A DNA stretch of 64,000 bases from positions 44,764,001-44,828,000 of the forward strand of contig CM114271.1 in the NCBI GenBank assembly GCA_050084515.1, in the 5' to 3' direction. The stretch comes from Blasia pusilla (taxonomy: Eukaryota). This document shows positions 3,736 to 42,701 of this stretch, piece after piece. The notes beneath the pieces are model-generated. The model saw nothing but the letters and a program-made list of their open reading frames with translations, searched no databases and was not told where the DNA came from. Within the stretch, counting starts at the first letter, position 1; every line of letters starts with the position of its first letter. The position numbers and the translations under genes were made by a program.

Positions 3736-6212
3736 AAGGAAGAAATGAGAAGTGTGGATCACCAAGGCAAGTTGGGGGGATGAGAAAGAAGGGGAAGATG
3801 GGGCCCACATTGGCAAGTCCTTCTATAGGAGAGACGTAAGTCCACTCACTTTGTTCAAATACAACCTTGGTCACGAATACACCCACACGGTGCACTATGC
3901 ACCTCCTCTGCCCCGCCTTTGCACTATCTGACCGATGCCTACCCTGTCTCTTGGATGTTCCGTGCACACTTCCCTATGGAGCCTCATTCTGCTCCCTCCG
4001 CATCTTTGAAGAACTTTTATACTCAAAGGGTCTTTGGCCTTGGATCTCATCATCACCAATTGACTCCACTAGTTTCAAGAGTTTGTCACAAGTCTTTAGT
4101 AGCTCAACCATTTGAAAATGGTATTTTTACCATTGGGCTTAAGTCCACCAAAGAAGATCGATCTTAGGAAATGAGTTCCACTTTACACTTTACTCACATA
4201 CATACTACATAAGCGCTTAGCCCCCCACTAGCTTGAAATACAAAAACTCCGTATCATTCCAAAACTCTTGGTATGCTATTGTGAATCGATCTCCAATCAA
4301 CACTTTGGACTCCTCCTTACTCAAAGAAGACATAATGGCTGAATATTCCTCACATTGGGCGATCCACTATTCGAGCATATGATCTTGAACAAACGTGCAA
4401 GGCTCTCATGCATCCTTTAGAAATCCGATTGTCTTTTGGCCATTCCCCTTCAAATTGAAGCACTAATTTCATAAGGAATTCCTTGACATTACATGAATGC
4501 CCCATTTGTATGAATGGGATGGGAAAATTTATCTCACAAAATTTCCCGCAAGAGATGGATGCTCGGTCCATCTCTAACTCATAGATTTACTTACTTTGTT
4601 ACGTCATTCATTCTGACATGATCTCCATGAGGTCCACCACTTGAGCATAAAGTGGTGGTCATTCAAGCTTGAAGCTAATTTCCTCGTTGACATATCTTAA
4701 CTTACAACATTCTCATGCCTAGAACTTATTGGTATATCATAGACGCGAGTCTTCTTCTCTGGCTCATAGTGAAGTAAGACTTCTTCTCTTGGTTTTTGGG
4801 ACTTGATTGGAAATTTTGGGGACAGTCCACCCACCGTCACCATCTTCAAGCCCCGATTCATTCAAATCATTTCCTTTCCTCTTGTATCCCTCCCCAAGCA
4901 TCCAGTCACTACTTGTGACCATGAGGTCAAGCTCACTAAGAAAAGGCTATGATGCCATTTTTCATGCATCTAATCTCTTAAATATTTTATTTATGTGTCA
5001 TGGAAGCTTATGTTATGTAAGTGACTCGCTTGTTATTGATTTGCACCTAAGCACACTTATATAAGCCATGGTTTAGATCAACTGGCTAGCTTTGCGTATT
5101 CCGAGTGTGGATCTTGGGTAACCCCTCAAGTTCAATAGATCTAGATAAGGTTAGTATTCACCCCATCTGGATATATAGTTATCATAGACTTCTTTGAAAG
5201 TCTAGGAACTTGAAACAATGTGAGCATGCTTGATGGTCCTACTTAAATTGTCTAATGGATCTCAAACTAGTCTCTAATCAAAACTCAATTTTTGAGCCAT
5301 TGGTCAAGGTCCAAGTTTTGCGGCCATAAGTGGACTACCTACACTTGGCTTAGTGTCTAAGATATAATGCCAACCTCTCAATCGATTCCATTTCTTGCCC
5401 TTAGTTCAATTCCCCTATGGTTTTGAAGGAGGGGTTTAAGTTCCAAACTCTCTTGGAAATCCTCTTCCTTACATATGGTTATGGGAAATTTCACCCCCTC
5501 CCTTTATTCTCGGGTTGCTCCTTGTGACCCTCAACCCAAACTATCATTTTCACACTCGAGAATATTTGGATATGTATTTGGTTGCAAAGGTGATGCTTCT
5601 ACAAGTGTTGTAAGATCTACATCATATCCAAAAACATCTTGAACTTAGGGTCATCTACGCCATCTCCATGTCCCACACTTGACTCTAACATTGCCAACTT
5701 GCAATTATGAAATGAATATATTGTGCATCTCCCCCTAATTTCTATGCCCTCAAGAGTGAAACATTCCTCAATAAGGCTGGAACCATGTGTTACTCTTTCT
5801 TATGAGCAAAAGAGCCTCTACAAAGTTACTTGTTGTAGTTAGACACATCTCATTGTCTCATATATCTCTCTCCACATATAAGTATTCTTGAATGCAAAGA
5901 TCACTCTACAAAATACATGGTAGTCAATCCAATAATGATCCATCCAAAGAGATCCATCCTTACACCCTCCTTTGGATAAAACCATGAAATCAGTGTTTTT
6001 CCCAAAGATGAAAATATAACATCTCATGCTACCTTAGGCTTCTCTACTTCAACTCAAAGTGATGCAAGGGCCTCTCTCCACGTTGTGTGTATATGCCCTT
6101 ATGCCCTATACTGATAAAGCTTTGAACCCCATAAAGGCACCTTTCATATATAAGAAGGTGTGATCACGATACCCATTCTCTACTCAGGAAAATTAGCCTT
6201 GGTTATGTCCTT

Positions 6213-6693
6213 TGTCACATCTGAGTAGCCGATAGGCGGAGATCTATCGTGGATAGGGCGTAGGAGCCAGCGGACTATCTTGAGTGTAACTTTGTCCCAC
6301 GGTGTCGGATGAGGTTGGAGATAGGTCCATTGTGTCAGGAACGTCGTTTCTGAAAACTTTCATGTTTGAGGTCTTTCACAACCGGGTGACTTGTTGACCA
6401 GATCACCCGCCCCTGGTAACCTGAGCGCGTAGGTTACCAAGGGGATAGTTATTTTTAGGGGAAGAGCCTTTTGGCTCTTGCCAACCTATATAAGAGAGGA
6501 AGAGGGCTTTCCTAAGCCATCTTTCTCATGTTGGGCTATTGGAGCACCTCTCTTGTATGTGTGTGAGATAGGACTATGGTGCTAGCGTCCAGATTCCTTG
6601 ATAGCACAAGGTGGACGAGGCTCGATATGCCGATGTAGATTGAGGAGTGGAGTTTTAGGCCGGGTGTGCCATTTTTACTACTCTTTATTTTTA
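6213..6693 (+). repeat. Terminal repeat unit A1 (promoter/R/U5-like part of LTR)
   Basis: Direct repeat of 13502-13984; homologous to the start of copy C at 55988. Confidence 0.92.
6487..6531 (+). promoter_or_regulatory. TATA box (TATATAA 6487-6493) and predicted transcript 5' end (CATCTTTCTCATGT 6518-6531)
   Basis: TATA about 30 nt upstream of a motif complementary to the PBS; same layout in A2 and copy C. Confidence 0.65.
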
Positions 6694-6706
6694 CATGAGA
6701 AAGATG
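6693..6706 (+). promoter_or_regulatory. Self-priming-type primer-binding site ACATGAGAAAGATG
   Basis: Lies where A1/A2 homology ends; exact reverse complement of 6518-6531; lacks the TGG start of a tRNA PBS. Confidence 0.75.
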
Positions 6707-7856
6707 TCAGGGGGCTGGTGGGAATTTGTTGTTTGCAGGGAGGCAAGCGAGTTGCCTTGGTCGAGAGCCCCTAGAGACGCGTGTGTTGCGGGTGTTGGTT
6801 ATTTTTCTATTCGGAAGGCTGTGGGCGGAAGCACTATCCGTTTTTCTCAGATTTTGCTGGTGTGGATTGAAGGGGGACAACAACCAAGTGTAGTGTGCGG
6901 TGGGGCGTCGGGTGTACGCGAGTGAGGATGTCGAGAGAGAGAAGAAAAGGGCACGTTTGGATCTTGCAGCTGTCGAGGGACTGTCAAGTAAAGGCGACTA
7001 GGTTAGGTCGCGAAGGCTAGGTTTAGGGTGCGGAGGACGGGCGCGGCCACATGCAAGGGGCGCGGACAAGTGGACAAGTGCAAACAGAGGACGGGCGCGG
7101 CGACGGGCGAGGGGCACGGACGGACGGACACCCCCTCCCCCCGCGCATTTACTACCTTTTTTCGAACGTGGTTGGATGGCAACGTGGTAGGGTTCAGGAT
7201 GTGGTGACCAGGTTATCAGGTTGGAGTTTCTTACGTAGTTAGGAGAGTTACATGGTTAGGGTCAAGATGGACCCTCTACACCGATGAGTTGAAAACGGAG
7301 AGTTAGTGTCCATGATGGCGACGGGTTTTCCGCATCTATTGGCGAGAGGATTGACATGTTGGTTGAGGAGAGTGTTGTGTTGCGGACGTTGTCGTGTCAC
7401 ATGGAGGAGTACGTGTTGACGATGCCGTAGGTTGGAGGGCGTGATCAGGTTACCCATTCGAGCCCCCTTTTCCCACACTTGTCGTGTGTGATAAAGAGTG
7501 CTGGGTATCGGGTAGTAGCTGGTGCTAGGTGGGTGCAGTGATGGTGACGAGAGTAGATTCTTTTCTTGTGTAGCATGTTGGTGGATATACGGCGGTTGCC
7601 GCGTAGGGGTCGCATGTATGACTTGAGAGTGTCGCTAGGTTAGGTGAGTCAGTTGGGAGGCTCATGGTGAGCCCGAGTGTTGAGTGTACGTGAGTTCGGG
7701 TATGTCATCACGGGATTAATGTTAGCATAGTTGAGCTAGTGAGGAGTGTGGGAGACTCTCGATGAGTCTGAGTGCTTGAGCGGGTGAGACAGGGTTGTCA
7801 TCACGGCGTTCTTCCAGGGTTCGGAAGAACAGGGTAGTGCGAGCAGTAGTAGTGAT

Positions 7857-8710
7857 GTGACACGGAGTGGAGTGAGATACCGAGGGGTTATCAGTGAGGA
7901 GCTACCTCGACATCCATCCGTGGCTGGATTGTCATCACTAGACACCGGTCTAGTGACAAGATCGCAGACGGAGGCAGTATCGCTTGGCAGGAGATGGACG
8001 ACATGGGCCATCGGGGCATGCGTCATTTCTCGGGTGCAGTGGGCACCATCAACTTAGATGATTTTATCAAGGAGTTTGACACGTGGTGCGACTCCCAGGA
8101 GATACGGAACCCGACACATTTCAACCCTTTCATGGCATAGAAGGGGTTGTTCCAGCACTTAGAGGGTCCTCCGATGGATGACTGCATGGAGTTCCGATCA
8201 CTATATTCAGTAGAGATCGATGCTTGGAGGATGTATTGGGCTCTAGGGTATGTGTCCACTAGTGGTCGGGAGACATATGATGGGATTGTGAGAGGAGAGA
8301 GACCCACACCATGAGCCCGGAGACTAGATGGAGAGGAGGGCAGTGAGATAGGCGATGTGGCAAAGACCTCTGGTGGTAGAGGACCACCCAGCTTCAGCCC
8401 CACAGTGGAGTTCTTCCGATAGTTGGGGAAGAGCTACCAGGGCGTACGCAGCGATAAGCTTAAGAGTCTTCAGGATTTTCAGCGATGATCGGGTGAGAGT
8501 CTGAGAGAGGCATTCATGCGCGTGAGGAGGCTGATCATTGCTACGTATGGAGTGATTGAGGCGCCGTCAGTCGAGTATTGGTACGGGGTTCTAGACCGAG
8601 AACTACGGAGGAGAGTCCGAGATGCGATGCCGATTCACACAGCGAAGCCCACATTGAAGGTGGTCTTTGAGTTGTCTGTGCGTATTGAGCTCAACATGAG
8701 TGAGGAGCAG
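7857..8710 (+). pseudogene. gag: Gag (capsid-like) of copy A, with stops and frameshifts
   Basis: DDFIKEFDTWCD...KGLFQHLEGPPMDD and GESLREAF...YGVLDRELRRRVRD, matching copies B and C. Confidence 0.8.
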
Positions 8711-8956
8711 GTAGCGGATAGTCCCACGGAGAGACACGCCATGGCGGGTGTCTCTTCCCATGTTGGCGAGACCTCTTCACCATGGTGGGGTACAACTCGA
8801 GAGCTACAGAGGAGTGCCGTCAACCTCGTGAGGCAGGCGTGGAGTCATGCCTTTATCCCGGAGCAACAAGAGTCAGGTGGCGATCGGGCTTCTGGAGTGG
8901 AGACGTTGACCCCACTGGATACCACACCCATTGTGTGGCAGTGTCTAGAGGAGGGT

Positions 8957-9880
8957 GTTAGGGTGTTAGATCTCTTCAGAGGGATTAGCACAGAAGTGGT
9001 TGCAGTATTGCAGGGAGGCACACGGGTGCATCAGTACCTTTATGTGGAGAGAGATGAGACCGCGCGGCGAGTATCAATACGTCACGTGGTGAGATTGGTC
9101 CATAGGTATCTTGAGTTGTTGCTGGTATCTGCAGTACGGGGATATCAGCATACACTACCCACCGATATCTCTTTGGTGGGGGCGCAAGATCTGGATAGAG
9201 TTGGCACCATTCATTTGGTGATTGTTGGATGGCCATGTCAAGGTCATTCGTCAAGTGGCCGAGGATTTGGATTGCAGGATCCGAGGTCAAGGATATTTTG
9301 GGAGATGTTGCGAGTAGTACGATACTTGCAGGAGAGTCAGACATGTTCTCCAACGTACATTTTGGAGAACGTGTCATTGTTGGGAGACACTCGTGCATGT
9401 GTGATGACGAGTGTGCATCAGGTAAGGTCCTGGTTGGGACTTGCTGTGTTGTTAGATGCAGCGAGAGTTGGGTGGCATGCCCATCGTCCATGACTCTGGT
9501 GGACGAATCTGATACCATCAGAGGTACTGAGTCGAGCATACGATGGAGTCCAGAGAGCACCACATCTCACAATGGATGTTATTTTGAGCTCAAGGCGTCG
9601 ATCTTAGGTGGTGACACGGGATGATAAACCACCGTTGGCCATGGCCAATAGGATGGGGGAGTTGAGGGCAGCCTTACCTACATTGGTGAGCTTCCCAGCA
9701 TCCCATGCCTTTCGTCCAGGAGGGCCAGGCATGATTTGGGATGAGGTGACCGAAGCATTGGAGGAGCCTACAGCAGATGAGCGCGAGCGTGCCATGGGGT
9801 TCGCTATCGGTACTACGGCGGTGCCAGGGATGACTGAGGCATCCCGGAGATAGGTGTTGGGGCAGGCGATGGACCTCAAC
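8957..9880 (+). pseudogene. C5 cytosine DNA methyltransferase domain (DNMT3-like) in polyprotein of copy A
   Basis: Motif I VLDLFRGIST, II YVE, IV VIVGWPCQG (Cys codon 9236-9238), VI ILENV, VIII AHRP*LWWTNL, IX ERERAMGF, X RR*VLGQAMD; one frame broken by 3 in-frame stops. Confidence 0.92.
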
Positions 9881-10206
9881 TATCTCACATGGATAGTTAG
9901 CCTAGCTATGGTTGAGCAGAAACGGATGCGAGTGTCATCCATGCCGTCACGTCCACGAGTTGGACCATTGCCTACAGGGTATGTACAGGCATTGGCTGGG
10001 GACGGGACAAGGAGAGATAGGCACCCATGGACTTCCTGGGACGTCGTTCGAGCGGAGAGTGCGAAGGCGGCCAGAGTAGCATATGTTCATTTTTTGGATG
10101 TGGAGCATGGTGTACAAGGTCAGAGTGGAGTGGCTGTTGCGGAGGTGGCTAGGATTGCTACATAGCAACCAAAGCCGGAGGTTGCGTCCCCCCGAGTGAG
10201 ATCACG

Positions 10207-13144
10207 ATGGAGACTTGGAAGCCTGTGATAGGTCTCAAGTTGATAGGAGGAGAGCAACGGCGAGTTCATAGGACTCTGAGAGGGCATGTCAGTTGTTTTG
10301 CCTTCAATATGAGAGACTTGGGTACGCTGAAGGGTCCCGGGATACAGATTGAGTTGGCTAGTGATACGCCGATCTTTCGTCGACCCTAGAGGTATTCCGA
10401 TATGGAGCGAGCCTTGATTCATAGCAGGAGTCAAGACTTGTTGGAGGCAAGAATTGTGGAGTTATCACATGGGGAGTATGCATCTGCCACAATCATACCG
10501 GCGAAGAAGGATATGTATGGCAATTGGACGGATAGGCGGATGTGTGGAGATTACCGTCCTATCAACCGACAGATTAGGTCAGATCGGTACGCCATGCCTA
10601 CTCTTGAGGAGATCTTTTGATGCGGTAGGGCATGCAAAGATCTTCAGTACTTTAGATTTTGGTGCTGGCTATCATCAGCTTCCTATCAGGTTGGAGGACA
10701 GGGAGAAGACAACATTATGGGGGATAGATCTGTTTGGGAGAGATTGCTTGTATCAGTGGCGGTTCTTACCATTTGGGTTGAAGAACGCGCCTGCAGAGTT
10801 TCAGAGAGTGATGGATAGGATTCTACCTGGCTTGGATTTTGTACAATGTTACATAGATGATATTCTTATCTTCAGTTCCACGATTGAGGAGCATGAGTGA
10901 CACCTGGAGGAGGTGTTTCGGCGATTGCAATTACATGGACTGAAGTTACATCCAGGCAAGTGCAGATTCTTTTAGGAGCAGATTGAGTACTTGGGACACA
11001 CCATATACCCAAGTGGGTTAGGCGTTCAGCAAATGAAGGTAGAGGCTCTTGCGCAAATTCCACGCCCTACAGATATGAGTCGAGTCCGAGCATTTCTTGG
11101 ACTGGTGAACTTCTATCGACAGCATGTCAAGGGTTTTAATGCGATCGCAAAGTCTTTGATCTTGTTGACGAGACTTGATCAGGTTTGGTTGTGGGGAGAT
11201 GATCAAGAGCGAGCATTTCAGGAGCTCAAGGACAGGTTGACGTCCTCATCCATTTTACAGAGACCGGTTAGGGGTCGCCCATTCCAATTACATACGGATT
11301 GGAGCATGTTGGGTCTAGGAGCAGTGCTTACTCAGAGGGATGATGAGGAGAGGGAGTTCGTGGTGGCTTACACGAGTCGATCGAACAACATTGTAGAGGC
11401 GAAGTACAACTCCTACCAGAGAGAGTGCTTGGCTGCAGTGTGGGCCGTGGCACATTTCAGGTGCTATTTATTCGACAAACCTTTCACACTTATCACTAAT
11501 CATCATCCGTTGAGGTGGTTGATGGAGTCCGACAAGCTTACGGGAAAGCTTGCTAGGTGGGCTCTATTATTGCATGAGTATGAGTTTGAGGTGGTTCGTA
11601 GGCCAGGTCGGCTGAACCAGGATGCGGACAAGTTGAGTCCTAACCCATGTCCGAGACAAAGAGACGACACACGAGCTCGATGGCACGGAGAGAGTGATGA
11701 GGAGATGGTGCTCGGGTGGCATGCATCTGCCTATCTTTGTTGGTTGACTATGGTTGGTCAGCCACAGGTGATGACTCTAGTGGTGGGGTTGGATGATGAG
11801 TCTTTGGATCCGGAGGTCAGTGAGGAGGCGACAGGTGGTCGTGATATCCATGACAACGTGGAGGTTGTGGAGTTCTTGCGCACTGGCGTCATAGCGAGCA
11901 CAGTGAGTGCTAGGGAGCGGGATCGGATCCTACAGCGAGCCAGGAGGTTCAGGTGGGAGGGGACTCACATTTTTCGGGTATGGGGAGATGGTAGGATACG
12001 AGTGGTATCTCATCCTTCCCAACGAGCACGTGTAGTGCGACATGCCCATGAGGAGTTGGGACATTTTGGAGTAAAGCGTACTTATAGCTTACTCGAGGTT
12101 CAGTATTGGTGGCGCGGTATGCATACTAGGGTACAACAGTTTGTGGCCAGATGTATGGTATGTGATAGAGTGCGAGCATCCTTCAATGCTCCCACTCCGT
12201 AGTTACATCCTTTTCCAATTATGGGTTTAGGTTATCGGTGGAGTTTAGACTTTGCGGGACCATTGCCATTGACTAGGCGTCATCATAGGTACGTGTTGGT
12301 CATGGTGGAGCATTTCTCCAAGTGGATAGATTTGGTGGTACTACCGGAAAAGGCGAGCAAGGGAATAGCTTATGTGTTTCTAGATCGTGCGCTTAGTCAC
12401 TTTGGTGCACCGGCGGAGGTGTTGACTGACCAGGGTAATGAGTTCAAGGGAGAGTTTCAGGCCTTGTGTGATCAGGCGCTAATAGATCACCGCACCACGT
12501 CCAGAGATCATCCTGAGGCGGATGGGTTGGCGGAGAGAGTGGTACAGACGGTGAAGAGAGGGTTACGCAAGTATGGCTTGTAGCGGGGACAGTTGAGGGA
12601 GTGGGACCTACAGTTGCCATGGTTGGCTATGGGTTATCGCCTTAGTCAGTAGGCATCCTTGGCGTCATTTTCACTGTACTTTTTGCTCTTTGGGAGAGAT
12701 CCAGATTTACCTGCAGCCATTCGACGTGACATGGCGGAGGTGTTAGATCTTGATGATCCAGATGTGTGGGTACAAGCATGTTCTCGAAGGGCGGAGGCTT
12801 TTCGTAGAGTTATGCCTATGGCCTTTGAGAACTTAGCTATTGCTCAGTATAGAGATACATTGAGGTACGCGACCATTCGTGGATGAGGTTATCGTCCAGG
12901 GATTAGGAGGTTTCATCCTGGAGATTATGTGTATTTGCAGCAAGCGGCACCCACGACACTAGATGTCACTACAAGACGCACGATCCTACGTGTGCGCGAG
13001 GTATTACCGACCGGAGTCCTCATGTTGGAGGGACGGGATGGTATGGTTTGGAAGGATCATATGCGCAATTGTGCGCCATGTCATCTTTCGAACGTAGATG
13101 GGACAGTGGATCCAAGCTTGGCAATGGTACCTGCATGCTTGAGA
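10207..13144 (+). pseudogene. pol: Reverse transcriptase, RNase H and DDE integrase of copy A
   Basis: RMCGDYRPIN, LPFGLKNAPAEFQ, YIDDILI; LHTDWS...ECLAAVWA; HEELGHFG..CMVC, WSLDFAGP, TDQGNEF, GLAERVVQ. Confidence 0.95.
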
Positions 13145-13279
13145 TGTATGTTGTGCGGATCTACGAGGGGTGCAACCACCATGTTGGTATGTGATGGTTG
13201 TTCTCGAGGGTGGCATATATCATGTCTGACCCCCCCTCTTGATGTAGTTCCCAGGGAACGATGGATGTGTCCGAGATGT
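13145..13279 (+). other. PHD finger (C4HC3) at integrase C-terminus, copy A
   Basis: CMLC...MLVCDGCSRGWHISCLTPPLDVVPRERWMCPRC. Confidence 0.92.
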
Positions 13280-13352
13280 GTATAAGATAGTAGGTCACGT
13301 CAGAGAGATGTGATATTTTCTATCTGGAGTTGGAGGGATCCAACTGCCAGCT

Positions 13353-13362
13353 AGGGGGGCGG
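13353..13362 (+). promoter_or_regulatory. Polypurine tract of copy A
   Basis: AGGGGGGCGG directly before unit B1; equivalents at 43006-43016 and 63694-63703. Confidence 0.85.
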
Positions 13363-13499
13363 TTGTGTGATCTCCATGTATATGTATGAGTTGATTTTTG
13401 TACATGTGTGGATCGACCAATGTGTGGGGAAGATTGGTGTTGTGTGGTGTAGATGTGACCAGCGATGTATGTTGTGTAGCGATATGTATGCGCACGACA
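13363..13499 (+). repeat. Terminal repeat unit B1 (137 bp, U3-like)
   Basis: TTGTGTGATC...GCACGACA, repeated at 13985-14121. Confidence 0.92.
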
Positions 13500-13501
13500 A
13501 C

Positions 13502-13984
13502 TGTCACATCTGAGTAGCCGATAGGCCGAGATCTATCGTGGATAGGGCGTAGGAGCCAGCGGAATATCTTGAGTGTAACTTTGTCCCACGGTGTCGGATG
13601 AGGTTGAGGAGAGGTCCACTGTGTCAGGAACGTAGTTTCTGACAACTTTCATGTTGAGGTCTGTCACAGCTGGGTGACTTGTTGACCAGTCATCGCCCCT
13701 GTAAGTAGCTTTGTCTTGCGCAGTTACTAAGGGGATAGCTATTTTTAGGGGAAGAGCCTTTTGGCTCTTCCCAACCCTATATAAGAGAGGGAGATGACTT
13801 TCCTAAGCCATCTTTCTCATGTTGGGCAAGTGGAGCACCTCTCTTGTATGTGTGTGAGATAGAACTAGGGTGCTAGCGTCCAGATTCCTTGATAGCACAT
13901 GGTGGACGAGGCTCAATATGCCGATGTAGATTGAGGAGTGGAGTTTTAGGCCAAGTGTGTCATTTTTACTACTCTTTATGTTTA
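13502..13984 (+). repeat. Terminal repeat unit A2
   Basis: Direct repeat of 6213-6693, separated from B1 by AC. Confidence 0.92.
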
Positions 13985-14121
13985 TTGTGTGATCTCCATA
14001 TATATGGATGAGTTGATTTTTATACATGTGTGGATCAACCCTTGTGTGGGGAAGATCGGTGTTGTGTGGTGTAGATGTGACCAGCGATGTATGTTGTGTA
14101 GCGATATGTATACGCACGACA
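13985..14121 (+). repeat. Terminal repeat unit B2 (137 bp)
   Basis: Direct repeat of B1; followed by TSD CCTT. Confidence 0.92.
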
Positions 14122-16859
14122 CCTTTGTGTGGATATGGCTGGTAATCACATGTGTTGGCCAAGTAAGGATGTTACAAAATACTACTAGAGTCGGTATCAT
14201 ACTTAGTCAATGCTCTATAACTCCACTAGTAAATTGTATTCGGAGTAAAATAACATATCCATATCCATAGTGCCATTCTAGAGATGACTACCTTTGAGTG
14301 AGAGGTTGTAACACTATGCTCACACTCACATAGAGTTGTGGCAAGCGAGAACATCCTGACATGCCCAACTCCCAATACGGAAAAATCTATGCCTGAAGAC
14401 AATGGAAATCCATTGTCTTCAACCAGAGGTACAAGTCTAGTATCATGTGCTCGACCATATCTTATTGAGATGAAATTAAGAGTGAGCAACCATATTTCTT
14501 GATAGCCCACAATAAAGTTGGTATGTTTTTTTGGTGGAACATGTTGATCTATAAGTCATTAAGATAGAGGTTGTTGCAATGTGCGATTCGAAGGAGATAC
14601 CACATGCATCAACCATAAGAACTACATAGCCACGTACACCTAGAGAGCATGTAGTGACACATTGAGTGCAAAGAGGCTATAGAGAACCAGTGTATCAAAG
14701 ACCCATACCAATTTTTTGCAAGGAAAAAAAATTAGAGTTCACATGTTGGTCATGGGCATAACTATATCATTAGCAAGACTGTATATGCCATGGTAGTGTA
14801 TGTGGATAAGGGGTGCATATGGAGTCCCAACCCATAGGCTAGAGGGACTTTAGAAAGGGGATTTTCATTGCGAACATCATCAATGTTGTGGTCATTATCG
14901 GGATAGGCGTTCTATCTTATATCCTAAATGATGCCTATAAAGAGTACTTGATTAAGCCAGAGCATCCAAAGGAGCCAAAGGTTGAGGCATAGGTGGCCCT
15001 AAAGGATGATGTGGTGGCATGTATGACCAAGGAGGAGGTAGATGCCCACCAACTAGATGAGTCGAGGGACACCTTGGGCATGAATCCGAGATGCCAGCTC
15101 AGATAACTAAAGGAGTGTATTGTAGTAATGGCACTCCAATTTCTTAACGCAAGATTTGTAGCATCTACTTCCTATGGTAGTGGCAAGGATCACGAGGATC
15201 CCAAATGGATGTGCGGGCTCGCCCATGTTAAGGAAACCAACATTGTGATAGAGGAGTAGCCAAAAAGTTGGACCCACAACAAGGTGATACTTGTAAGAAA
15301 ACTAGGTTTCCCCACTCATTTACCTTAGCCAAGGCTATGAGGATCCCAATGATGGTTTGTGATTACACCTCTCAAGGTTTAAGAAGAGTTGGCATAGATG
15401 CATGATAATATAGGGAGATTTGAGTAGATTGACATCCCATGGTGGAGCTTAGGAGGAGCCTATATGGGTGAAATGCAAGGGTGTCCACCGACTTGCTTCA
15501 ATCACCCTATCATCAATAACATATTCTAGCCCTTCATACAAGCTGATGAATTGGTCTATGTGTTCATTATGGGTTGCATCATACGATTAGTCATATGGTG
15601 CATATATTCTAGACACCAATAAAGCCTCCATGGCTTGATCTCTACTACATGCAAAGATGATAACTTATGATAGTTGTCCACCGATGGACCCTCCTAGTAT
15701 TGATATATCATTTCCGAGGAAATAAATGAGTTGTTTTATATGTGCCTTCTGGTGCATGCATATCAACACGCTCCATAATCTACAATGAATTTGTATAGCT
15801 CCAAGATATAAATTAAACTCGAGCATCTTTACAAGATCCACCTCCCACAATGATCTCTTATTTCCCACAAAGTGAAGTATGGTGCCACTAGTGGATCCCA
15901 ATGGCAAGCTTGGGAAATCAATCTCTTGTGTCCATACATTCATAACTCTCAATTCATATATATCCTTGCCTATCAATACAACTCCCAACTACCCAACACC
16001 TTGAGAAAATCCTCACATGTGTAGGAGGGGAGAAAAATTGGATAAATTGGGTATAGTAATAATGACAATGTTACTTTTGAAAAGTGGGAAATTTCATCCA
16101 TCATGTTAGAGCCAAGGTGACTTTCTTGGCACTAACACAACTTTGAGATTAATGATAATGTTATGCCGCTACGAGGAGCACATTATAACGATAGCAACAA
16201 TTATACGGCATGGCTAGAAGAGACACAACACGATAAAAAATAGCAACTATGGTATAGCAATAATAAATGCAATACATTGGGAAAATGAGGACATGCTATA
16301 ACTATGAGCAACATGGATATGACTACTTGTGTAACATCACACCCATGGGCATCCAATGCATCTATAACAATTCCCCCAATTCCCCGATGAGTGTCCTAAC
16401 GAGCCAAACTCATTTAAGGTTATGGGTGGAACAACATACTATGGTGTGCTTATTGAGTGAAGATCTTTCCATACCTATCGAGTTGATTCGCATCACAAAA
16501 TAGTAGCAAATCACATATCAATGAAGATCTAGAACAAGACATTGTAGAAACTCATCATCGATTTTTTATTTTTTATTTTTTTTTTTGGGGGGAGGGGTTG
16601 GTAATTACAATGTTGCACACTTAGGATTCCTACCTCCTTGAAAAATCATCCTCAAGCTACCAAAATCCGACATCCGCCCTTCTCAAGAACATTGAGCAAA
16701 TCCTTTCTACTCCCATGTGAATTACTCCTTATATTTATGTCTAAAAAATATATTCTCACATATTAATGGGCATCACAACATAAAATAATATTATAGTATA
16801 TATATGTTTGTAATGAAATGATAGGCATTATGGGAGGAAAACATTAAATAACCAAACGA

Positions 16860-33638: not shown

Positions 33639-34177
33639 TATCGTACGTCTACTCTCCTTGAACGTTAATCTTTATTGTTGTGAAAGCGTGTGTTCAGTAG
33701 GTCACTCTCTCAACGATGATCTGCATCCAAACACGCACTCACGTTAGTCGGGTTTGGATCAATCAACAGTTCTAACTCGCCAAGTCCTCGACTCGGCCTC
33801 TCATGACGCTTGTCATGACCATACGGATTATGTCGTAGAGTATAGTGTGCTAGTAGAGGCCATACCTTATGTAGGGCCATAATGTCTAGCTAGAGATGCG
33901 GTTTCATACATAGGGTTGGGGGTTACTCAGTTGAGGGTGACTTTTCCAGTAGGGCCCGCTCTTAGGTTGGAGGATATAGTGTGGAGTGCACTCAAAGAAC
34001 AGTTAGTTCTTTGAGTTGACCCTGTTGCGTTGGGAGTTAGCCTTGGTAGTGAGTAGAGCTACTGGCTATGGTGGTTCCCGCAAGCTTCGACCTGGATTAT
34101 CCCATCGTGGAGTGGGTTTGGCTTGATTGTATGTGATTCTATACGTATTTTATGACAATAGGTCTTTCAGGGATTTC

Positions 34178-34190
34178 ACTCAAAGAACTA
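34178..34190 (+). promoter_or_regulatory. Self-priming-type PBS of copy B (ACTCAAAGAACTA)
   Basis: Exact reverse complement of TAGTTCTTTGAGT at 34004-34016, about 30 nt after ATATA at 33974. Confidence 0.65.
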
Positions 34191-35694
34191 GAGTAGATCG
34201 ATGGTAGCTTCGATTGTGGATCAGTAGGATCTGGTTAGGGCTGATTGTGTACTCAGCTGTGGATGTTCGTGGCTTGTGGCCTATGTTGGAGGTGGAAATC
34301 TGGTGCATGATTGGTTGGGAAAGAAGCGCCTTGTTGAGAACTTTCCAACGCGCTTTAGATCGCCAAATTTTGTCAAGGGAGTTGGAGTTATCAAGGATTG
34401 AAGATTTTGTTTCGTGTTCGACGGTTTTTTGATATGGAGAGCTTGGAGTGCGGAAGCTCTATTGAAGTTCATCCAGATCGGGTGAGAGGTTCCTATTGCT
34501 ACATGTATTGTGATCTCATGTGAAGCTATCTGGTTGAGTGTGTGGAGCGTTGCGGAATCTGGGCGGAAGCGTTGTCCAATTTGCGATTCTGAAGGTGAAT
34601 GGATAGCAAGTTTGTCTGATTTTTAGCTTGGAGTATGGAGCTTGGTTGTAGCTGATTTTTTGTGGAGAGATAGCTATGGTGGCCAATTGAATTTTGGTTG
34701 AAACAGATTCAATTTTGGTTGATGTTTTGTGGAGTAATTGCTGATCAAAAGTTTGCGGACTAGCTCAAGGTTTGGCTATGGTGGACAGCAGATCGGAGGG
34801 GTTGGTTGGTTGGTTGGTGATTCGTCCATTGTTGGAGACGCCTATCCCATTGGGGGCGCCCTGGTTGGGCCTCTCTCCATAGCGAAGCATGGCGAAGCGT
34901 GGCGAACGGGGCATGTCTCGAGCATTTTGAGGCTTTGAGGCAACTGGTGGTAGCTCGGGGCGAGTGGGTGTGAGAGGCGGAGTAAGGAGCAAGGAGCAAG
35001 TAAGCAAGCTTGCTTGCTTGGGCGTGAGGCAATTTTGCTGGATTTGTAATTTGAGTGTTGCATAAATGATCACCCATCTTTGGGCTATTCTGCCTGGAAG
35101 ACGCTTAACTGCTAAGTTCTTAACTATGCTAGTGTACACACTGGTGTAGCTCATTTGGTGTTGTTTGGAGATGTGTTAAGCGCTTTATGCATCTCAGGTT
35201 TTTGGTTGATGGACCTCTAGCGCATAGTACGGTGTAGCCTCTTCATGCACGTGATATTTTCAGGTGCTGCGAGTCCGACCAACACGTCATCGACCCGCAT
35301 CGTAGTAGCTAGTGCGTTAGAATTGTGTGGTGGGTTTTGTGGATTTAGGGGGGCGCCACGTTTGGTGGATTGTGTTACCTTGATTTCCATTTGCGATTGG
35401 AGGGTTATCGTTGGACTTCCTATGTTTGGATCCCCTCCATCGTTGCTTCTTGCTTGCGCGCCCATTGTTAGAGTTGACGCTGATTTCCAGAGTAGTGTTA
35501 CTCCTGTGTGCTACCGGTAGTGAGGCTGGAGTGATGACCAGTAGACCGTGGGAGGCTTCTTGTGGTGATGATAGGTTAGGTTGCCTACACCCATAGCTAG
35601 TAGAGCTAGAATAGTACATCGACATCGGCGTCACTTGGTTACTTAGTGATGGTAATTTGGTGGTGGTGCGGCATCGACGTTAGTCATCACGGAG

Positions 35695-37110
35695 TTGTCT
35701 GGTGGTCTGGTTGTGGACCGTGTTGCGGAGAGTGGTGGTTTTACACGGAGTGGATTGAGGTATCGACTACCTTTTCCACTTCCCACGGTTGATGAAGAGG
35801 AGGACGAAGGTGTTCCAAACATCGAGTCTTCTACGTTGTTATCGAGTGTTGCAGCTCCATTGATTTGGGACATGGACGGGATATATGGGGCCATGAAGGG
35901 CCCACGACAATACTCAGGTGAAGTGGGCACCATTAAGTTGGAGGACTTCATTCAGGAGTTTGATACGTGGTGTGATATGCAGATGTTGCGAAACGCCACG
36001 TTGTTTACACCCTTCTTGGCTTGGAAGGGGTTGTTTCAGCACTTGGAGGGACCACCCATGGATGATTACCATGAGTTTAGGAAGGACCATGTTGCTTAGA
36101 TTGAAGCGTGGAGACAATATTGGTCTCCAATCTATGAATCTCTCACCCATGGTGGTATTGGTAGTAGTGCTCCTACTATGTCAGCCAGCCCGACGTTGAG
36201 TGGTACGAGTACGAGCCGGAGTGGGGGTAGCCATGGAGGTACCAGTGGAGGTACTAGTGGAGGTACTAGTGCCCCACCATACTTCAGCCCGGTTGTAGAG
36301 TTCTTCAAGATGTTGAAGAAGAACTATCAGGGAGTGAAGACAAAGAAGTTGAGGAGTCTCCAAGAATTTGAGCGAAAGACTGGTGAGAGTCTTCGTGAGG
36401 CATACACTCATATGTGACGCTTGATTTAAGTTATCTAGGGTGTGATTGAGGCTCAGGAAGTCCAATTTTGGTATGGGATCTTGGACAGAGAGTTGCGCCG
36501 CAGGGTACGTGATGCTACTCTTATGAGTGATGATTCACCCACATTGACCCATGTATTTGCTCTATCTGAGAAGATTGAGCTTAACATGATGGAGGAGAGA
36601 GTGGTGATATCCGCATTCAATAGGGATACAACAACTACTTCTCGTGTTCAGCAGTTCACCTCAAAGTCTCGTAGTAGTGGTGGTGGTAGTAGTAGTGGGA
36701 GTCGTGGGAGGTACACACGACCTCAGTCAGGTCCTAGAGGGATACTTGCGTAGAGACCATTGCCTTCATTTGCTGCCCCGCAGCAAGGACAGTCATGTTG
36801 GACATGTGGAGGTGATCATGTTAGAAGGGTTTGTCCCCAAGAGGATGGGAGACGGACTTTGGAGGATGGGCCTCAGTCGGCCCCAACTCAGTGTGATCAT
36901 TGCGGGAGACCAGGTCATCCTCGAGAGCGTTGCTTTGATCTTCATCCTGAGTTGAGATCAGGCTGCGGCCATGGTGGAGTAGCTCCGAGAGGCCGAGGTG
37001 GTAGAGGTGGTAGGGGTGGTAGAGGTGGACCAGTGGTTGGAGAGCCTACGTTGGCTACCCCTACCACTATGACAGAGTCAGCTATGGCTGCCAGGATTGA
37101 GCAGTTGGAG
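35695..37110 (+). pseudogene. gag: Gag with two zinc knuckles and RGG tract, copy B
   Basis: EDFIQEFDTWCD..., CWTCGGDHVRRVC, CDHCGRPGHPRERC, RGRGGRGGRGG; single frame with stops. Confidence 0.85.
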
Positions 37111-37806
37111 TAGAAGTTGGGTACTATGGCTGGTATTCAGCATAGAGCAGGTTCGAGAGCAAGGGATTCCACCTCTTATGGAGGGGATGATCTCTCTTAT
37201 ATGGCGAGTGCAAAGACCTGAGGTTGAGGCATCACAGCAGCGATTCTGAGAGGAGCCACTCGAGCGTCAGAGCCACGTGGTGCTACTGTAGAGTTGGACC
37301 CATAGAGGGGTGAGGCTGGGAGGCAAGCTAGGCTTCCCCAATCATTCTTATTGTCTGAGGTGCTTAGGACTCCATCCATGGTTCCTACGCATCCTATTGA
37401 GCCTACAGTGGGGACTGAGGCATCTACATCGCATGTAGTAGACACGGACGCAGCATCTAGTGCAGTATTGCGGATGGCAACTTCAGTGTTGGGATTCCCA
37501 TTGTTTTCGGTCACAGAGCTGATGGCTTTAGGAGTTGACTTAGCTCCTGTATTTCAGCTAGCAGCCACGTTGTGTGAACGTGGGGGTATTACTGCTACAC
37601 GTGCTGAGGTCGATGAACGTGTTACGGTGGAGCGACCCTCTATGTCAGGTATAGCATTGAGTACCAGTGCTACTTGGCAAGCAGCAGCAGCGAAGATGGA
37701 TGCATTACCAGCCCGACCAGCCATTGATCGTGAGAGGCTTACACTTGGTGTATGTATGTTGGACAACCGGAGTGGGATATTCCGATTGGTGAGTCCTACA
37801 GGATAG

Positions 37807-38106
37807 GTGTATAGACCAGATAGAGTCTTGTTAGAATCTGGTGCCCAAACTTTGATGTTGCGAAAGGCGGCATGTATTGGTTTGGGTATTCGGAGGTCAA
37901 AGCTTGAGCCTTGCCCATTCCAGATTCAAACATCATTTGGAGGAGCCAATGATAGGTCTCAATTCATGACACGGGAGAAGTTGTCTGTACAATTGAGACC
38001 AGATCATGCGACTGATAGCTCCCGGTTGGGAGTACCTACATTGGTCACATCAGTCGAGCAGTATTGTAACCGATGGGTTTTCAGATGGACTACTGGACTG
38101 AGATAG
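37807..38106 (+). pseudogene. Aspartic protease, copy B
   Basis: VLLESGAQTLML (copy C has FLLDSGAHPLML). Confidence 0.75.
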
Positions 38107-38537
38107 CGTCTTAAAGACCTGGTTGGCAGTCCGAGGATGGACATATGAGCCAGATTCTTGTGAGATTTATTTATGGGGCTCGACCTGGAGGCTCTTCCCC
38201 AACGGTGTTAGCATCTGTGGCTGGTTTTAGTGGAGTAGTCACTTGGCCATGAGACTTTTTGGAGGGTAATCTTTGTGCTATGGATTCTCCTTTGCATGAG
38301 GAGGTAGAGGAGGTCCCTAGTTTTTCAGAAGTGGCATCCTCATCGTTGGATGTGCCACTTTGGAGTTCAGGCGGTGCACTACCGCAAGAGGCTGATCGCC
38401 TAGTGCAGGAGGCTTGGTGTGAGGCTGTTATACCTCATGAGGAAGAGGAGGCCCCATGGCGGACTCCTACTTCTGGTCCAGTTGGGTTATGCCCTTTGGA
38501 TACTACACCCATTGTATGGCATTATCCGCCGGAGGGC

Positions 38538-39470
38538 ATTTGTGTGTTAGATCTCTTTGGTGGGATTAGCACTGGTTTGGCTGCAGTGTTGCAGACCGGT
38601 ATTCTTGGGCGGAGATACGTGTATGTGGAGGGAGATGAGATGGCCCAGAGAGTCTCATCCCGACATATCGGTCAGTTGATGCGGAGATATCCTGAGTTGT
38701 TGCCACCATCAGCTATTCGTGGGTACCAGCGTGCTTTGCCGTCACACATTGCATTGTTGGGGGCGTAGGACCTTGAGAGGGTTGGTCCTGTGGATTTGGT
38801 GATTGTTGGATGGCCATATCAGGGTCATACACGTGCTGGTCGTGGTGAGGGATTACACAACCCTAGGTCTCGATTATTTTGGGAGATGTTATGGGTGTTA
38901 CGACATCTTCACGTTCATCAAGCACGTGCTCCAGCTTACATTTTGGAGAATGTTCCATTGTTGGGTGACACTTGGACCCGGATGATGGCAAGTGTTCATG
39001 AGGTGCGGTCTTGGATTGGACCAGTGGTGTTGTTGGATGCAGCGCGAGTTGGCTCGCGTGCACATTGTTCACGCTTGTGGTGGACAAACTTGTTGCCTAG
39101 GGAGGTTCTACGTCGAGCATATGATGTAGTGCAGCGGGATCCTTGCCTTACAGTGGATAGTATTTTGGATACAGGGCGACTTTCTCAGGTGGTGAGGGTT
39201 ATTGATCAGTCACCCATGGCAGTGGTGAACCGTGTGGGCCAGCCTAGGATGGCACTACCCACATTTGTGAGTTTTCCCTCGTCACATGCCTACATGGAAG
39301 GTGGTCCTGGGCTTGTATGGGATTCTCATGTGCGACAGTTGGTGGAGCCTAACGCTGATGAGAGAGAGTGTGCGATGGGATTTGCTACCGGTGTGACAGC
39401 AATTGCTTCCATTTCTGAGGCTTCACGAAGTCATATGTTGGGTCAAGCCATGGACTTGAATTGTTTGACC
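38538..39470 (+). pseudogene. C5 cytosine DNA methyltransferase domain (DNMT3-like), copy B
   Basis: VLDLFGGISTG, YVE, DLVIVGWPYQG (catalytic Cys to Tyr, TAT 38817-38819), ILENV, AHCSRLWWTNL, ERECAMGF, LGQAMD. Confidence 0.92.
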
Positions 39471-39737
39471 TGGATTTTGAGTCTTGGGATGGCCAAGCAG
39501 CGTCGACTTTGGACTATGTCTATGGGTCTTCCACCCCTTGTGATGAGATTGATGGCTACCGGGATGGTAGAGACATCGGCTGGGGGCGAGGAGAATAGCA
39601 TTTTGCATCCTTGGAGTAAATGGGATGTAATGGTTGGGCATGTGGAGTTGGTTGCTCATGCCGGTGGAGGAGTTATTTGCTCAGATGATGGTATAGCTAA
39701 GGGTGTACCATCTTGTGAGGGGGTTGCCTAGCAGCCA

Positions 39738-42701
39738 ATGGCGTCCTCCTCTCCCTCTAGTGTGCCAGTGGAGGAGACTTGGGAGCCATTACTTGGGCCC
39801 AAACTTAGGGGAGGTGAGAAACGACGCTTGACACAATTCCTACGTGCTTATAGGAGTTGTTTTGCCTTTATCATGAAGGAGTTGGGTGCTTTGGTTGGAC
39901 CTGGTATACGGATTGATTTGGCTAGTGATTCGCCAATCTTCCGTCGTCCCTACCGATATAGTGATATGGAGAGGGACTTGATTCAGAGTAGGACGTTGGA
40001 CCTTTTGGAGGCTGGATTAGTGGAGTTGTTGCATGGAGAGTATGCATCAGCCATTGTCATGCCTGCTAAAAAGGATGTGCATGGCAACTACACGGATAGG
40101 CGGATGTGTGGAGATTATCGTCCTTTCAATCGGCAGACCAAGGCCGATAGGTATGCCATGCCTACACCTGAGGAGATCTTTGATGTGGTGGGACAGACAA
40201 AGATTTTTAGTACTTTGGATCTTCGGGCATGATACCATCAGTTGCCAATTTGAGAGAGTAACAAGGCCAAGACAACATTTTGGGGTGTCAACTCTCATGG
40301 CAAGGATTGTTTGTACCAATGGAAATTCTTACCCTTTGGGTTGAAGAATGCATTTTCCGAGTTTCAGAGAGTGATGGACAGGATCCTAGCAGGGTTGGAT
40401 TTTGTTTGGTGTTACATTGATGATATCTTGGTGTTCAGTAACACGGTGGAGGAGCATTAGATACATTTGCAGATTGTGTTTGAGCGGTTGAAAGCTCATG
40501 GTCGACGTTTGCATCCAAGAAAGTGTAAGTTCTTCCATGAGGATGTAGAGTACTTGGGTCATGTGATCTATGCAGGTGGTTTGGGAGTTCAGCAAGCAAA
40601 GGTGGAGGCTATTGCACTTATTCCTCGTCCGGTAGATGTGAGTAGAGTTTGGGCATTCATGGGATTAGCAAACTACTATCGGAGGTATGTAAAGGGATTT
40701 AGTGCTATGGCAAAGCCTTTAAACCAATTGCTGAAATCATATCAAGAGTGGCACTGGGGAGATGATCAGGAGAGAGCTTTTGTGGAGCTCAAGGCCCCGT
40801 TAGTGACGGCGCCTACCTTGAGGAGACCTATCGAGGGGCCCATTTTGGATTACACCGATTGGAGTAGGTTGGGACTTGGAGCGGTGTTGACACAACATGA
40901 TGATGAGCACATAGAGTTTGTGATGGCCTATGCAAGTTGTTCGAATAATGCAAATGGAGTCAGCGCTATAGTTCATATGAGGGATAGTGCTTGGCAAGAG
41001 TATGGGAATGTGGGCACACTTTAGGTGTTACTTGTTTGGCACACAGTTTACCCTTATTCGATCACCACCGCTCAAGTGGTTGATGGAGTCCGACAAGCTT
41101 ACAGGAAGCTTGCACGGTGGGCTCTTATCTTATAAGAGTATGACTTCCGGTGGTACATAGACCCAGAGTTGCCAACCTTTATCCGATGGGTTGAGTAGGA
41201 ACCCATGTACTAGCCAAGAGGATGCAATTGGGGCTAGATGGCATGGCGAGGTTGATGAGGAGATGGTGCCAGGTTGGCATGCATTCGACTTTTTATGTTG
41301 GTTAGGGGTGGACTCTAGTATGGAGGACCACATGACATCTTACTCTAGTCAGATGGCCAGCCTTCAGATCCTAAGGTTGGAGATGGTGGTACGGATCAGC
41401 GTGTTCATGATGATGCGTTGGTGTTGGAGTTCCTACGGACCAGTAGGGTGCCAGGCATAGTGAGTGCCAAGGAGCGAGACCGTGTTCTTCAACGTGCTAA
41501 GAGGTATAGATTGGAGGGAACACATATTCTCCGTGTGTGGGAGGATGGTAGAGTACGAGTAGTCCCGCATTTGGCTCAGAGAGAGCGCATTGTGCGACAT
41601 GCCCATGAGGAGTTGGGACATTTTGGGGTAAAGCGTACGTATAGCTTACTCCTTGGTCAGTATTGGTGGCGTGGCATGCATACTCAGGTGCAGCAATTGA
41701 TGTCACGTTGTATGGTTTGTGACCGGGTGAGGGCATCATTCAATGCCCCTACACCATAGTTACATCCCTTGCCTATTATGGGGTTGGGTTACCGTTGGAG
41801 TGTGAACTTTGCGGGACCGTTACCGTTGACTGTATGACATCATCGATATGTGTTGGTGATGGTGGAGCACTTCTCAAAGTGGATTGAGTTGGTGGCATTA
41901 CCTGACAAGGCAAGTGAGGGAACGGCGTATGTATTTCTTGATAGAGTGCTTAGTGATTTTGGTGCACTAGCTGAAGTGTTGACCGACCAAGGTAGAGACT
42001 TTCACGGTGAGTTTCAGGTCTTGTGTGACAAGGCGTTGATTGATCATTGGACCACGTCTCGAGATCATCTAGAGGCGGATGGTTTTGCTGAGCGTGTGAT
42101 TCAGACGGAGAAGAGGGCATTGCGCAAGTATGGCCTACAAAAGGGGCATCTTGGAGACTGGGAAATTCAGTTGCCATGGTTAGCCATGGGGTAAAGGTTC
42201 AGTTGCCAAGCATCCTTGGCTTCCTTCTCACCTTATTTTGTGTTATACGGCCGAGATCCAAACTTGCCAGCAGTAATTTGTTGGGAGTCTAGTGAGGTGG
42301 TGAACCTTGATGACCCAGAGATGTGGATGAGAGTGTATTCTCAGCGGGCCGAGCTCTTTCGTAGAGTTATGCCAACAGCCTTTGAGAATCTTGCCATTTC
42401 TCTACACAGGGATACGTTGCGGTATGCAACCATTCGAGGTGGAGGTTATTGACCATCGATTCGTAGGTTCCATGTGGGGGACTATGTCTATTTGCAGCAG
42501 ATTACACCGACAACGTTGGATGTGACGGCAGGCCGCACTATTTTACGAGTGCGTGAGGTGTTAGCTTCTGGAGTTCTCATGTTGGAGGGTCATGATGGAG
42601 TTGTTTGGAAGGACCATGTGCGTAATTGTGCGCCATGTCATCTTGCAAATATGGATAGTACTATTGACCCAAGCTTAGCCATGATACGTGCTAGCTTGAG
42701 G
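39738..42701 (+). pseudogene. pol: RT, RNase H and DDE integrase, copy B
   Basis: RMCGDYRPFN, YIDD, YTDWS, HEELGHFG..CMVC, TDQGRDF, GFAERVIQ. Confidence 0.95.

Follow-up and report, generated by a model that had tools for sequence, protein, structure and literature searches.

Retrotransposons of the DIRS, PAT and Ngaro groups, which depend on a tyrosine recombinase, are not known to make a target-site duplication. Split direct repeats in the order A1-internal-B1-A2-B2 define the PAT, Ngaro and VIPER elements, which according to the available text of the source use tyrosine recombinases (PMC4157794). A DIRS-type repeat structure of this kind (A-coding-B-A-B) has also been drawn together with Gypsy domains, for KnitGypsy-Dnmt3 of Klebsormidium nitens, in the legend to Fig. 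4c of de Mendoza et al. (2018; PMC5890265); in the portion available, the main text of that article mentions no target duplications, boundaries, primer-binding site, polypurine tract, circles or mechanism. Self-priming has been predicted for the plant Tcn1 clade of the Tf1/Sushi group in the accessible part of Neumann et al. (2019; PMC6317226), and the integrases of foamy virus and HIV-1 are described in the available sources as cleaving the palindromic junction between the two long terminal repeats (LTRs) of 2-LTR circles (PMC1180852, PMC1905944, PMC4372172). Here we analyse 64,000 nucleotides (nt) of Blasia pusilla DNA (GenBank assembly GCA_050084515.1, contig CM114271.1, positions 44,764,001 to 44,828,000; the whole stretch is called the window), in which three copies of a Gypsy-type retrotransposon family lie. 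Self-comparison of the window gave the order A1-internal-B1-A2-B2 for the first of them, copy 1, at 6213-14121. Our results suggest that in this family reverse transcription and integration probably use different repeat boundaries, that each copy is probably a circular permutation of a normal element, and that the ends of the complementary DNA (cDNA) were probably joined before insertion.

Copy 1 begins with TGTCAC, ends with CACGACA and lies between two copies of the tetranucleotide CCTT, the flank joints reading CCTT/TGTCAC at 6209-6212/6213 and CGACA/CCTT at 14121/14122-14125. BLAST aligned A1 with A2 at 91% identity over 487 columns and B1 with B2 at 94.2% over 137 columns. In the self-comparison, the A repeats matched in three blocks of 94-95% each (6213-6366 / 13502-13655, 6433-6486 / 13723-13776 and 6485-6693 / 13776-13984) and the B repeats in a single block of 94% (13363-13502 / 13985-14124). 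Two kinds of internal boundary follow from this order: a B/A joint, at which B1 and A2 face one another across the dinucleotide AC, and an A/B junction, at which A2 runs directly into B2 (...GTTTA/TTGTGTGA at 13984/13985). The copy is decayed, and its reading frames are interrupted by stops and shifts.

The same layout recurs well beyond the window. We retrieved 80 related loci from metagenome contigs with an integrase alignment of five closer sequences, called the form of each locus with self-BLAST and a collection of A and B segments, and merged contigs that had the same flank; the integrases of these loci are 41-86% identical to the query. Fourteen unique ends have the form internal-B-A-B, while about 20 unique ends pass from internal sequence through B straight into flank. 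Four further unique ends have B followed by A and are incomplete or aberrant beyond (L039/40, L048, L021, L026), two are A/B ends that follow internal deletions (L061, L067), and three groups are unclear (L050/51/55/56, L057/59, L070). Of the unique 5' ends, 14 have a visible A start, and neither B before A nor A-B-A was found at any of them; two more 5' ends are partial, and a canonical pair of long repeats was present in none of the 80 loci. The elements start with TG or TA and end with CA, and perfect 4-base-pair (bp) duplications, each with a chance of 1/256, flank 9 of the 12 elements in which both ends are visible. These comprise five of the five A-internal-B-A-B elements (CCTT, AAGG, TCTC, ACAA, AATC) and four of the seven A-internal-B elements (TACA, TGTT, TGTG, GCTT); among the remainder, L019 matches at three of four positions, and L073 and copy 2 of the window at two of four each. 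The layout is retained down to lineages whose integrase is 44% identical to the query (L060/L062). Within each element A1 and A2 have diverged about as far as B1 and B2, which fits a single insertion event. Taken together, these counts confirm that the permuted layout is a property of the whole family.

The signals for reverse transcription do not coincide with the inserted ends. A primer-binding site lies directly after A, and its perfect complement, which we call the self-primer sequence, lies 155-161 nt upstream and 27-32 nt past a TATA-like motif; a polypurine tract stands directly before B in 19 of 19 rows of the form B-A-B. Because the primer-binding site adjoins A and the polypurine tract adjoins B, the predicted end of the U5 region (unique to the RNA 5' end) is the end of A, the predicted start of the U3 region (unique to the RNA 3' end) is the start of B, and the reverse-transcribed repeat deduced from these signals is B-NN-A. 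The primer pairs vary by lineage (CATCTTTCTCATGT/ACATGAGAAAGATG as against AGTTCTTTGAGT/ACTCAAAGAACT). In the window, the pair of copy 1 recurs in copy 3 at a spacing of 155 nt, and copy 2 has another pair, TAGTTCTTTGAGT/ACTCAAAGAACTA, at the spacing of 161 nt that is also seen in copy 1. Six further metagenome elements have exact pairs of 10-17 nt spaced by 158-162 nt, and the L062 lineage has a weaker pair of 9 nt spaced by 127 nt; an exact pair was not found in five decayed metagenome copies, and two more, L044 and L055, had only 8-nt pairs at other spacings. The primer-binding site covaries with the predicted 5' end of the RNA in three lineages, and since Tf1-type self-priming predicts such covariation, this supports self-priming. 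Both A repeats of copy 1 (6458-6484 and 13748-13775) contain a conserved palindrome, GGGGAAGAGCCTTTTGGCTCTTCCC, a short way upstream of the TATA box; copy 3 has it as well (56233-56259).

The initial annotation of this stretch had proposed the order A1-internal-B1-A2-B2, a repeat B+A defined by the primer-binding site and the polypurine tract, element ends between CCTT duplications that are the two halves of a CA-NN-TG joint inside U3, and a fusion of the U5 end to the U3 start at 13984/13985. Self-comparison and BLAST reproduced the order and the repeats at the coordinates it gave, and the boundaries described above agree with its other three proposals.

All 15 of the clearly read unique B/A joints have the form CA-NN-TG/TA, with a variable 2-nt spacer (GC, AT, AC or GT) between the conserved arms ...C(A/G)(C/T)(G/A)ACA and TGTCA/TATCA; the joint of L047, which is only probable, is not counted among them. 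The arms in L002 make up a perfect 8-bp palindrome. If both strands of such a joint were nicked 3' of CA, the nicks would be 2 bp apart, and the resulting ends would have a recessed CA-3'OH and a 2-nt 5' overhang, as processed retroviral cDNA does. The A/B junction is less uniform. In the main lineage the U5 end is followed by AG or AA, the two bases with which the polypurine region CGAG ends before B, and then by B, but L010 retains three nucleotides of the polypurine region, and L006 and L007 have a 17-nt filler followed by CGAG. By analogy, this heterogeneity is like that of retroviral circle junctions. An aberrant 3' end in L048 (3242-3885) consists of B1-GC-A2, 17 nt that copy the primer-binding site, and an inverted A that runs from the self-primer sequence back to the start of A and ends in ...GGTCATGACA directly before the flank. 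Such a product is expected when a plus strand that terminates in the primer-binding-site copy folds back onto the complementary start of the R region and is extended. Read in this way, L048 supports the priming model: it shows that the primer-binding-site copy paired with the self-primer sequence, and that an inverted A start was used as a CA end. In L040 (12020-12050), the B/A joint has been lost at a TATGAC microhomology, and unrelated GC-rich DNA interrupts A2 at the self-primer sequence.

Raw reads from one species (organism A), namely one DNA run, of which about 1% was read, and three RNA runs, were aligned to 13100-14400 of the window at 88% likeness. DNA depth, summed over both orientations, was about 1000 at the integrase end, 1470 in B1, 1740 in A and 550 in B2, and because it fell to 0-1 in the unique flank, it suggests a family copy number of the order of 1000, although depth cannot separate full, short and solo forms, since the final 40 nt of B are common to sister subfamilies. 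Approximately 37% of A ends run into B. Loose read ends pile up just after the end of B (1219 at 13499 and 653 at 13500) and just before the start of A (620 at 13502), and their consensus is AT-rich with low agreement; many independent insertions with common ends would look like this. Some reads that pass from the end of A to the start of B carry an added T, CT, TTT or CA, or filler plus the whole polypurine tract (two to three reads each), and six reads join 13984 to 13821 on opposite strands, which is the analogue of the L048 joint. The RNA reads are sparse, family-level and mostly in sense orientation; sense reads of a sister subfamily span the B/A joint, and RNA depth drops 3-5 fold past the A end at 13984. 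This sister subfamily, the main one in the RNA reads, has in common with copy 1 (13452-13511) no more than the final 40 nt of B and the opening 10 nt of A, and the short common stretch is the proposed integrase site.

The internal part of copy 1 encodes, in order, a C5 DNA methyltransferase, reverse transcriptase, RNase H, an integrase H2C2 domain, the rve core and a C-terminal PHD finger. The region of the methyltransferase PCQ motif aligned to M.HaeIII/HhaI, and the match to DNMT3C was weak. In copy 2 (38769-39731), BLASTP found the motif in the degenerate form GWPYQG; none of the 15 open frames from L001, L007, L017, L044, L064 and copy 2, all of them decayed copies, matched PF00145. Annotated relatives, 46-65% identical, come from Marchantia polymorpha, Calypogeia fissa and Sphagnum, and the Marchantia relative P0138 carries DNMT, reverse transcriptase and RNase H together. 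Among the matches listed for the polyprotein, the named relatives are from Marchantia polymorpha, Calypogeia fissa, Riccia sorocarpa and Sphagnum, and no Klebsormidium protein was among the 120 and 19 matches listed. The PHD finger at the end of the integrase is also present in copy 2 (42453-42842) and in P0040, at the position where chromoviruses have a chromodomain, and its presence suggests that the integrase may be targeted via a histone mark. Of 27 open reading frames of at least 80 amino acids listed for 5500-14800, 25 were scanned, and none matched a tyrosine recombinase at E <= 0.01; the other two, 13950-14270 and 14226-14555, are located at the 3' end of the element or past it. The domain content supports a Ty3/Gypsy-type family with a DDE integrase and probably without a tyrosine recombinase, as the initial annotation had held. 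That annotation was also right to regard split repeats as typical of tyrosine-recombinase retroelements, but overstated the case in taking them to be unknown on Gypsy elements, for which KnitGypsy-Dnmt3 is a precedent in the available text (PMC5890265).

These observations are best explained, in our view and with moderate confidence, by self-primed B-A...B-A cDNA whose ends are joined, in a 2-LTR circle or an equivalent, before integrase opens an internal joint and the permuted molecule is inserted. Transcription would start about 30 nt after the TATA box inside A, and the first 12-14 nt of the RNA would fold back onto the primer-binding site just past A, as in Tf1-type self-priming. The plus strand would be primed by the polypurine tract just before B, and the cDNA would then carry the repeat B-NN-A at both ends. 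Joining of the U5 end to the U3 start would give a 2-LTR circle or an equivalent end-to-end product. Rather than using the cDNA ends, the integrase would ignore them; its putative recognition sequences, ...CACGACA and TGTCA..., face one another across the 2-bp spacer of the B/A joint, which resembles the LTR-LTR circle junction of retroviruses. Nicking 3' of CA on both strands of one B/A joint would yield a linear molecule with recessed CA-3'OH ends that could be inserted with a 4-bp stagger. The product, A-internal-B-A-B, would remain able to replicate, since B1-A2 follows the coding region, whereas A-internal-B copies without a repeat would presumably be dead ends, derived from one-repeat circles, from cutting of both joints or from later deletion between B1 and B2. 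A broader proposal is that, throughout an old streptophyte clade that includes a charophyte, liverworts and Sphagnum, U5-U3-joined cDNA is the obligatory precursor, the integrase site is a circle-junction-like palindrome built into U3, and the reverse-transcribed ends are never inserted; for this proposal we see the chances as evenly balanced.

Several observations weigh against integration from end-joined cDNA. No extrachromosomal circular or end-joined cDNA was seen among the reads, which cannot separate it from genomic copies that also contain the A/B junction. A symmetric 2-LTR circle also predicts the form A-B-A-internal-B, which appears at none of the 14 visible 5' ends; six of those 14 elements have B-A after the coding region, and the one-sidedness has a p of about 0.016 if both forms were equally made and kept. 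It could reflect quick collapse of the missing form by recombination between its A repeats, a proposal made because these repeats exceed B in length three- to fourfold and lie nearer to each other, or it could reflect a directional process. In addition, all examined copies are old and broken (repeat identity 84-98%, with many stops), so that any activity is only inferred, and the heterogeneity of the A/B junction could equally stem from template switching by reverse transcriptase. Finally, the three RNA runs, in which coverage is sparse, contained neither a pile of read starts at 13809 nor a clear poly(A) site.

The absence of A-B-A-internal-B would find an explanation in a directional process that requires no closed circle. 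Reverse transcriptase would extend a linear cDNA at its right end; on reaching the U5 end, the plus strand would jump end-to-end to the U3 start and copy B, and perhaps more, producing a linear B-A-internal-B-A-B molecule that integrase would cut at the outermost internal joints. Such a process accounts for A-B-A at 0 of 14 visible 5' ends alongside 14 unique B-A-B 3' ends, junctions with retained polypurine letters or filler would fit template jumps as well, and the L048 product indicates that unusual plus-strand extensions arise and get inserted. However, integrase would have to cut at least 137 bp from the DNA end, which is the same inferred internal cleavage that the circle model needs, a B-A-B-A run was present in no read or contig, and the literature found holds no documentation of efficient end-to-end jumping by a Gypsy reverse transcriptase. 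We consider this explanation unlikely, but it deserves to be kept in view.

It is also conceivable that A-internal-B, excised from linear cDNA at both joints, is the normal product and that A-internal-B-A-B is a rare replicating by-product, the family being maintained by a minority pathway. The A-internal-B form is no rarer than B-A-B, with about 20 unique ends as opposed to 14 among the loci and two copies as opposed to one in the window, and four A-internal-B copies have perfect duplications. Nevertheless, with copies numbering of the order of 1000 in organism A and 37% of A ends continuing into B, full forms are not rare, and later deletion between B1 and B2 can equally yield A-internal-B. 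Moreover, this explanation concerns the ratio of products only, and U5-U3 joining would still be needed for the replicating form; we regard it as improbable.

An artefact, or a secondary rearrangement of a canonical element with the repeat A+B or B+A by deletion, insertion of a neighbouring solo repeat or misassembly, might be suspected for copy 1, which is old and broken, and repeats are a classic source of assembly errors. Against this, identical boundaries occur in independent contigs and in lineages with integrases 44-77% identical to the query, the polypurine tract and the primer-binding site lie at the A and B boundaries in all lineages, and both joints are covered by DNA reads, which leaves such an origin highly improbable. 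A repeat A+B that had lost its 5' B was rejected, as it would need the same deletion in every lineage and is contradicted by the polypurine tract and the primer-binding site. A second, solo A-B insertion beside an A-internal-B copy is excluded by duplications that enclose the whole A...B-A-B unit in five of five cases, and misassembly was rejected given the same layout in independent contigs and reads. The initial annotation had itself raised a chance tandem insertion or misassembly, which recurrence in the metagenome contigs and these enclosing duplications now rule out, and had asked whether most copies would be canonical BA...BA elements, yet B preceded A at none of the 14 visible 5' ends. 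That a DIRS/Ngaro-type element supplies a tyrosine recombinase in trans, which integrates the circle and leaves the Gypsy integrase irrelevant, would match the repeat topology that the available text gives for PAT, Ngaro and VIPER (PMC4157794), but is scarcely credible given the 4-bp duplications and TG...CA ends, which are hallmarks of DDE integrases, the lack of a recombinase domain in any scanned open reading frame and the conservation of the integrase across the family.

Table 1. Positions in the window of the features of copies 1, 2 and 3.
Feature	Position	Strand	Remark
Copy 1, left target-site duplication CCTT	6209-6212	.	same 4 bases after B2
Copy 1, A1	6213-6693	+	predicted 3' part of U3, TATA box, R and U5; starts TGTCAC
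Copy 1, TATATAA	6487-6493	+	31 nt upstream of self-primer sequence
Copy 1, self-primer sequence CATCTTTCTCATGT and predicted RNA 5' end	6518-6531	+	14-nt perfect complement of 6693-6706
Copy 1, putative self-priming primer-binding site ACATGAGAAAGATG	6693-6706	+	at A1 end; exact reverse complement of 6518-6531
Copy 1, open frame with C5 DNA methyltransferase domain (GWPCQG, ILENV)	8489-9493	+	PF00145, 32.3 bits, cut-off 22
Copy 1, reverse transcriptase fragment (RVT_1)	10418-10900	+	PF00078, E 1.4e-16
Copy 1, RNase H and integrase H2C2 zinc domain	10976-12202	+	PF17917, PF17919, PF17921
Copy 1, integrase catalytic core (rve)	12203-12583	+	PF00665, E 4.9e-14; one in-frame stop from preceding frame
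Copy 1, integrase C-terminus with PHD finger	12887-13285	+	PF00628, E 3.4e-11
Copy 1, polypurine tract AGGGGGGCGG	13353-13362	+	adjoins B1
Copy 1, B1	13363-13499	+	predicted first 137 nt of U3; ends CACGACA
Copy 1, internal B/A joint CACGACA-AC-TGTCAC (CACGACAACTGTCAC)	13493-13507	.	proposed integrase site; its halves are the element ends
Copy 1, A2	13502-13984	+	BLAST match to A1
Copy 1, self-primer copy in A2, predicted R start	13809-13822	+	minus-strand match 13809-13823, 1 mismatch
Copy 1, B2	13985-14121	+	joined to last A2 base (predicted U5 end/U3 start); ends CACGACA
Copy 1, right target-site duplication CCTT	14122-14125	.	
Copy 2, form A-internal-B	33811-43121	+	about 70% identical to copy 1; 5' end 33811 uncertain
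Copy 2, self-primer sequence	34004-34016		
Copy 2, primer-binding site	34178-34190		
Copy 2, polypurine tract	43006-43016		
Copy 2, B	43017-43121		followed by flank
Copy 3, form A-internal-B	55988-63842	+	duplication GCTT at 55984-55987 and 63843-63846
Copy 3, A	55988-56461		
Copy 3, self-primer sequence	56293-56306		
Copy 3, primer-binding site	56462-56475		
Copy 3, polypurine tract	63694-63703		
Copy 3, B	63704-63842		

The other two copies in the window are both of the A-internal-B form (Table 1). The flanks of copy 2, CGCT and GACT, match at only two of four positions, so its duplication is unconfirmed. About 4.2 kb of copy 3 (59140-63372) has no match to copy 1, perhaps because another element is nested there or because the pol region has been replaced; a 65-bp unit is tandemly duplicated, at 97% identity, in 58521-58650 of the same copy. 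Among the metagenome loci, a family member at L049:12063-14663 sits in the RNase H region of a more distant, L060-type member, whose B-A-B end comes 1.9 kb downstream. The ends of the contig L077 (1-123 and 9049-9171), from a more distant relative with 45% integrase identity, share 123 identical bases, which points to a circular assembly or to repeat collapse.

A permuted layout on a methyltransferase-bearing Gypsy element is thus already in print, while the mechanistic reading given here is new as far as the literature searched and can be tested. We found no mechanistic account of permuted Gypsy elements in that literature, outside of which lay subscription journals, Repbase reports and supplements, and the sole mention was the 2018 figure legend. 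Textbook LTR retrotransposition equates the reverse-transcribed repeat with the unit that integrase recognises, and this family separates the two. If its integrase does open end-joined cDNA internally, 2-LTR circles could be productive intermediates for a DDE integrase, and the DIRS/Ngaro-type layout would follow from circle integration and not from the class of enzyme. It would also mean an independent, convergent origin of the split-direct-repeat architecture that has so far been tied to tyrosine recombinases. An older circle-precursor model is reportedly due to Panganiban and Temin. Should U5-U3-joined cDNA prove to be an obligatory precursor, the family would provide a natural working case of that abandoned model, the 2-LTR circle being a dead end in retroviruses. 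For annotation, it is of consequence that LTR-finding programs will overlook these elements or misplace their ends, and A-internal-B copies lack a terminal repeat altogether. Marchantia polymorpha, a tractable model, has annotated relatives, which makes the mechanism testable, and the methyltransferase and the integrase PHD finger raise questions of cDNA methylation and chromatin targeting.

Set beside canonical Ty3/Gypsy elements, the family has the same order of reverse transcriptase, RNase H and integrase and the same TG...CA ends with a short duplication, but lacks identical terminal repeats as its inserted ends. With Tf1/Sushi and Tcn1 elements, as far as the available text describes them (PMC6317226), it shares the absence of a tRNA-type primer-binding site and the presence of a site complementary to the predicted 5' end of its own RNA; those elements, however, have ordinary LTRs and a chromodomain, whereas the present family has split permuted repeats and a PHD finger (PF00628). 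KnitGypsy-Dnmt3, compared by description only, is similar in having a C5 DNA methyltransferase inside a Gypsy polyprotein together with A-coding-B-A-B repeats. Its host is a charophyte alga, while the nearest named relatives of this family are from liverworts and Sphagnum, and the PHD finger found here goes unmentioned for KnitGypsy-Dnmt3 in the portion of the article available (PMC5890265). As in the 2-LTR circles of retroviruses, facing repeat ends form a CA-N-TG palindrome, at which a cut by a retroviral-type integrase would regenerate integration-competent ends. In the available retroviral sources (PMC1180852, PMC1905944, PMC4372172), though, the palindrome arises only after circularisation and linear cDNA is the main precursor, whereas in this family the palindrome is built into the repeat and the reverse-transcribed cDNA ends are apparently never the inserted ones. 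The likeness to PAT-like DIRS, Ngaro and VIPER elements, so far as the accessible text describes these (PMC4157794), lies in the same topology, with the internal repeats downstream of the gene for the integration enzyme, and DIRS elements also have a methyltransferase domain. PAT, Ngaro and VIPER, however, use a tyrosine recombinase, where this family combines an H2C2 and rve DDE integrase with TG...CA ends and 4-bp duplications; its likeness to them is one of topology, and it is not a member of their group.

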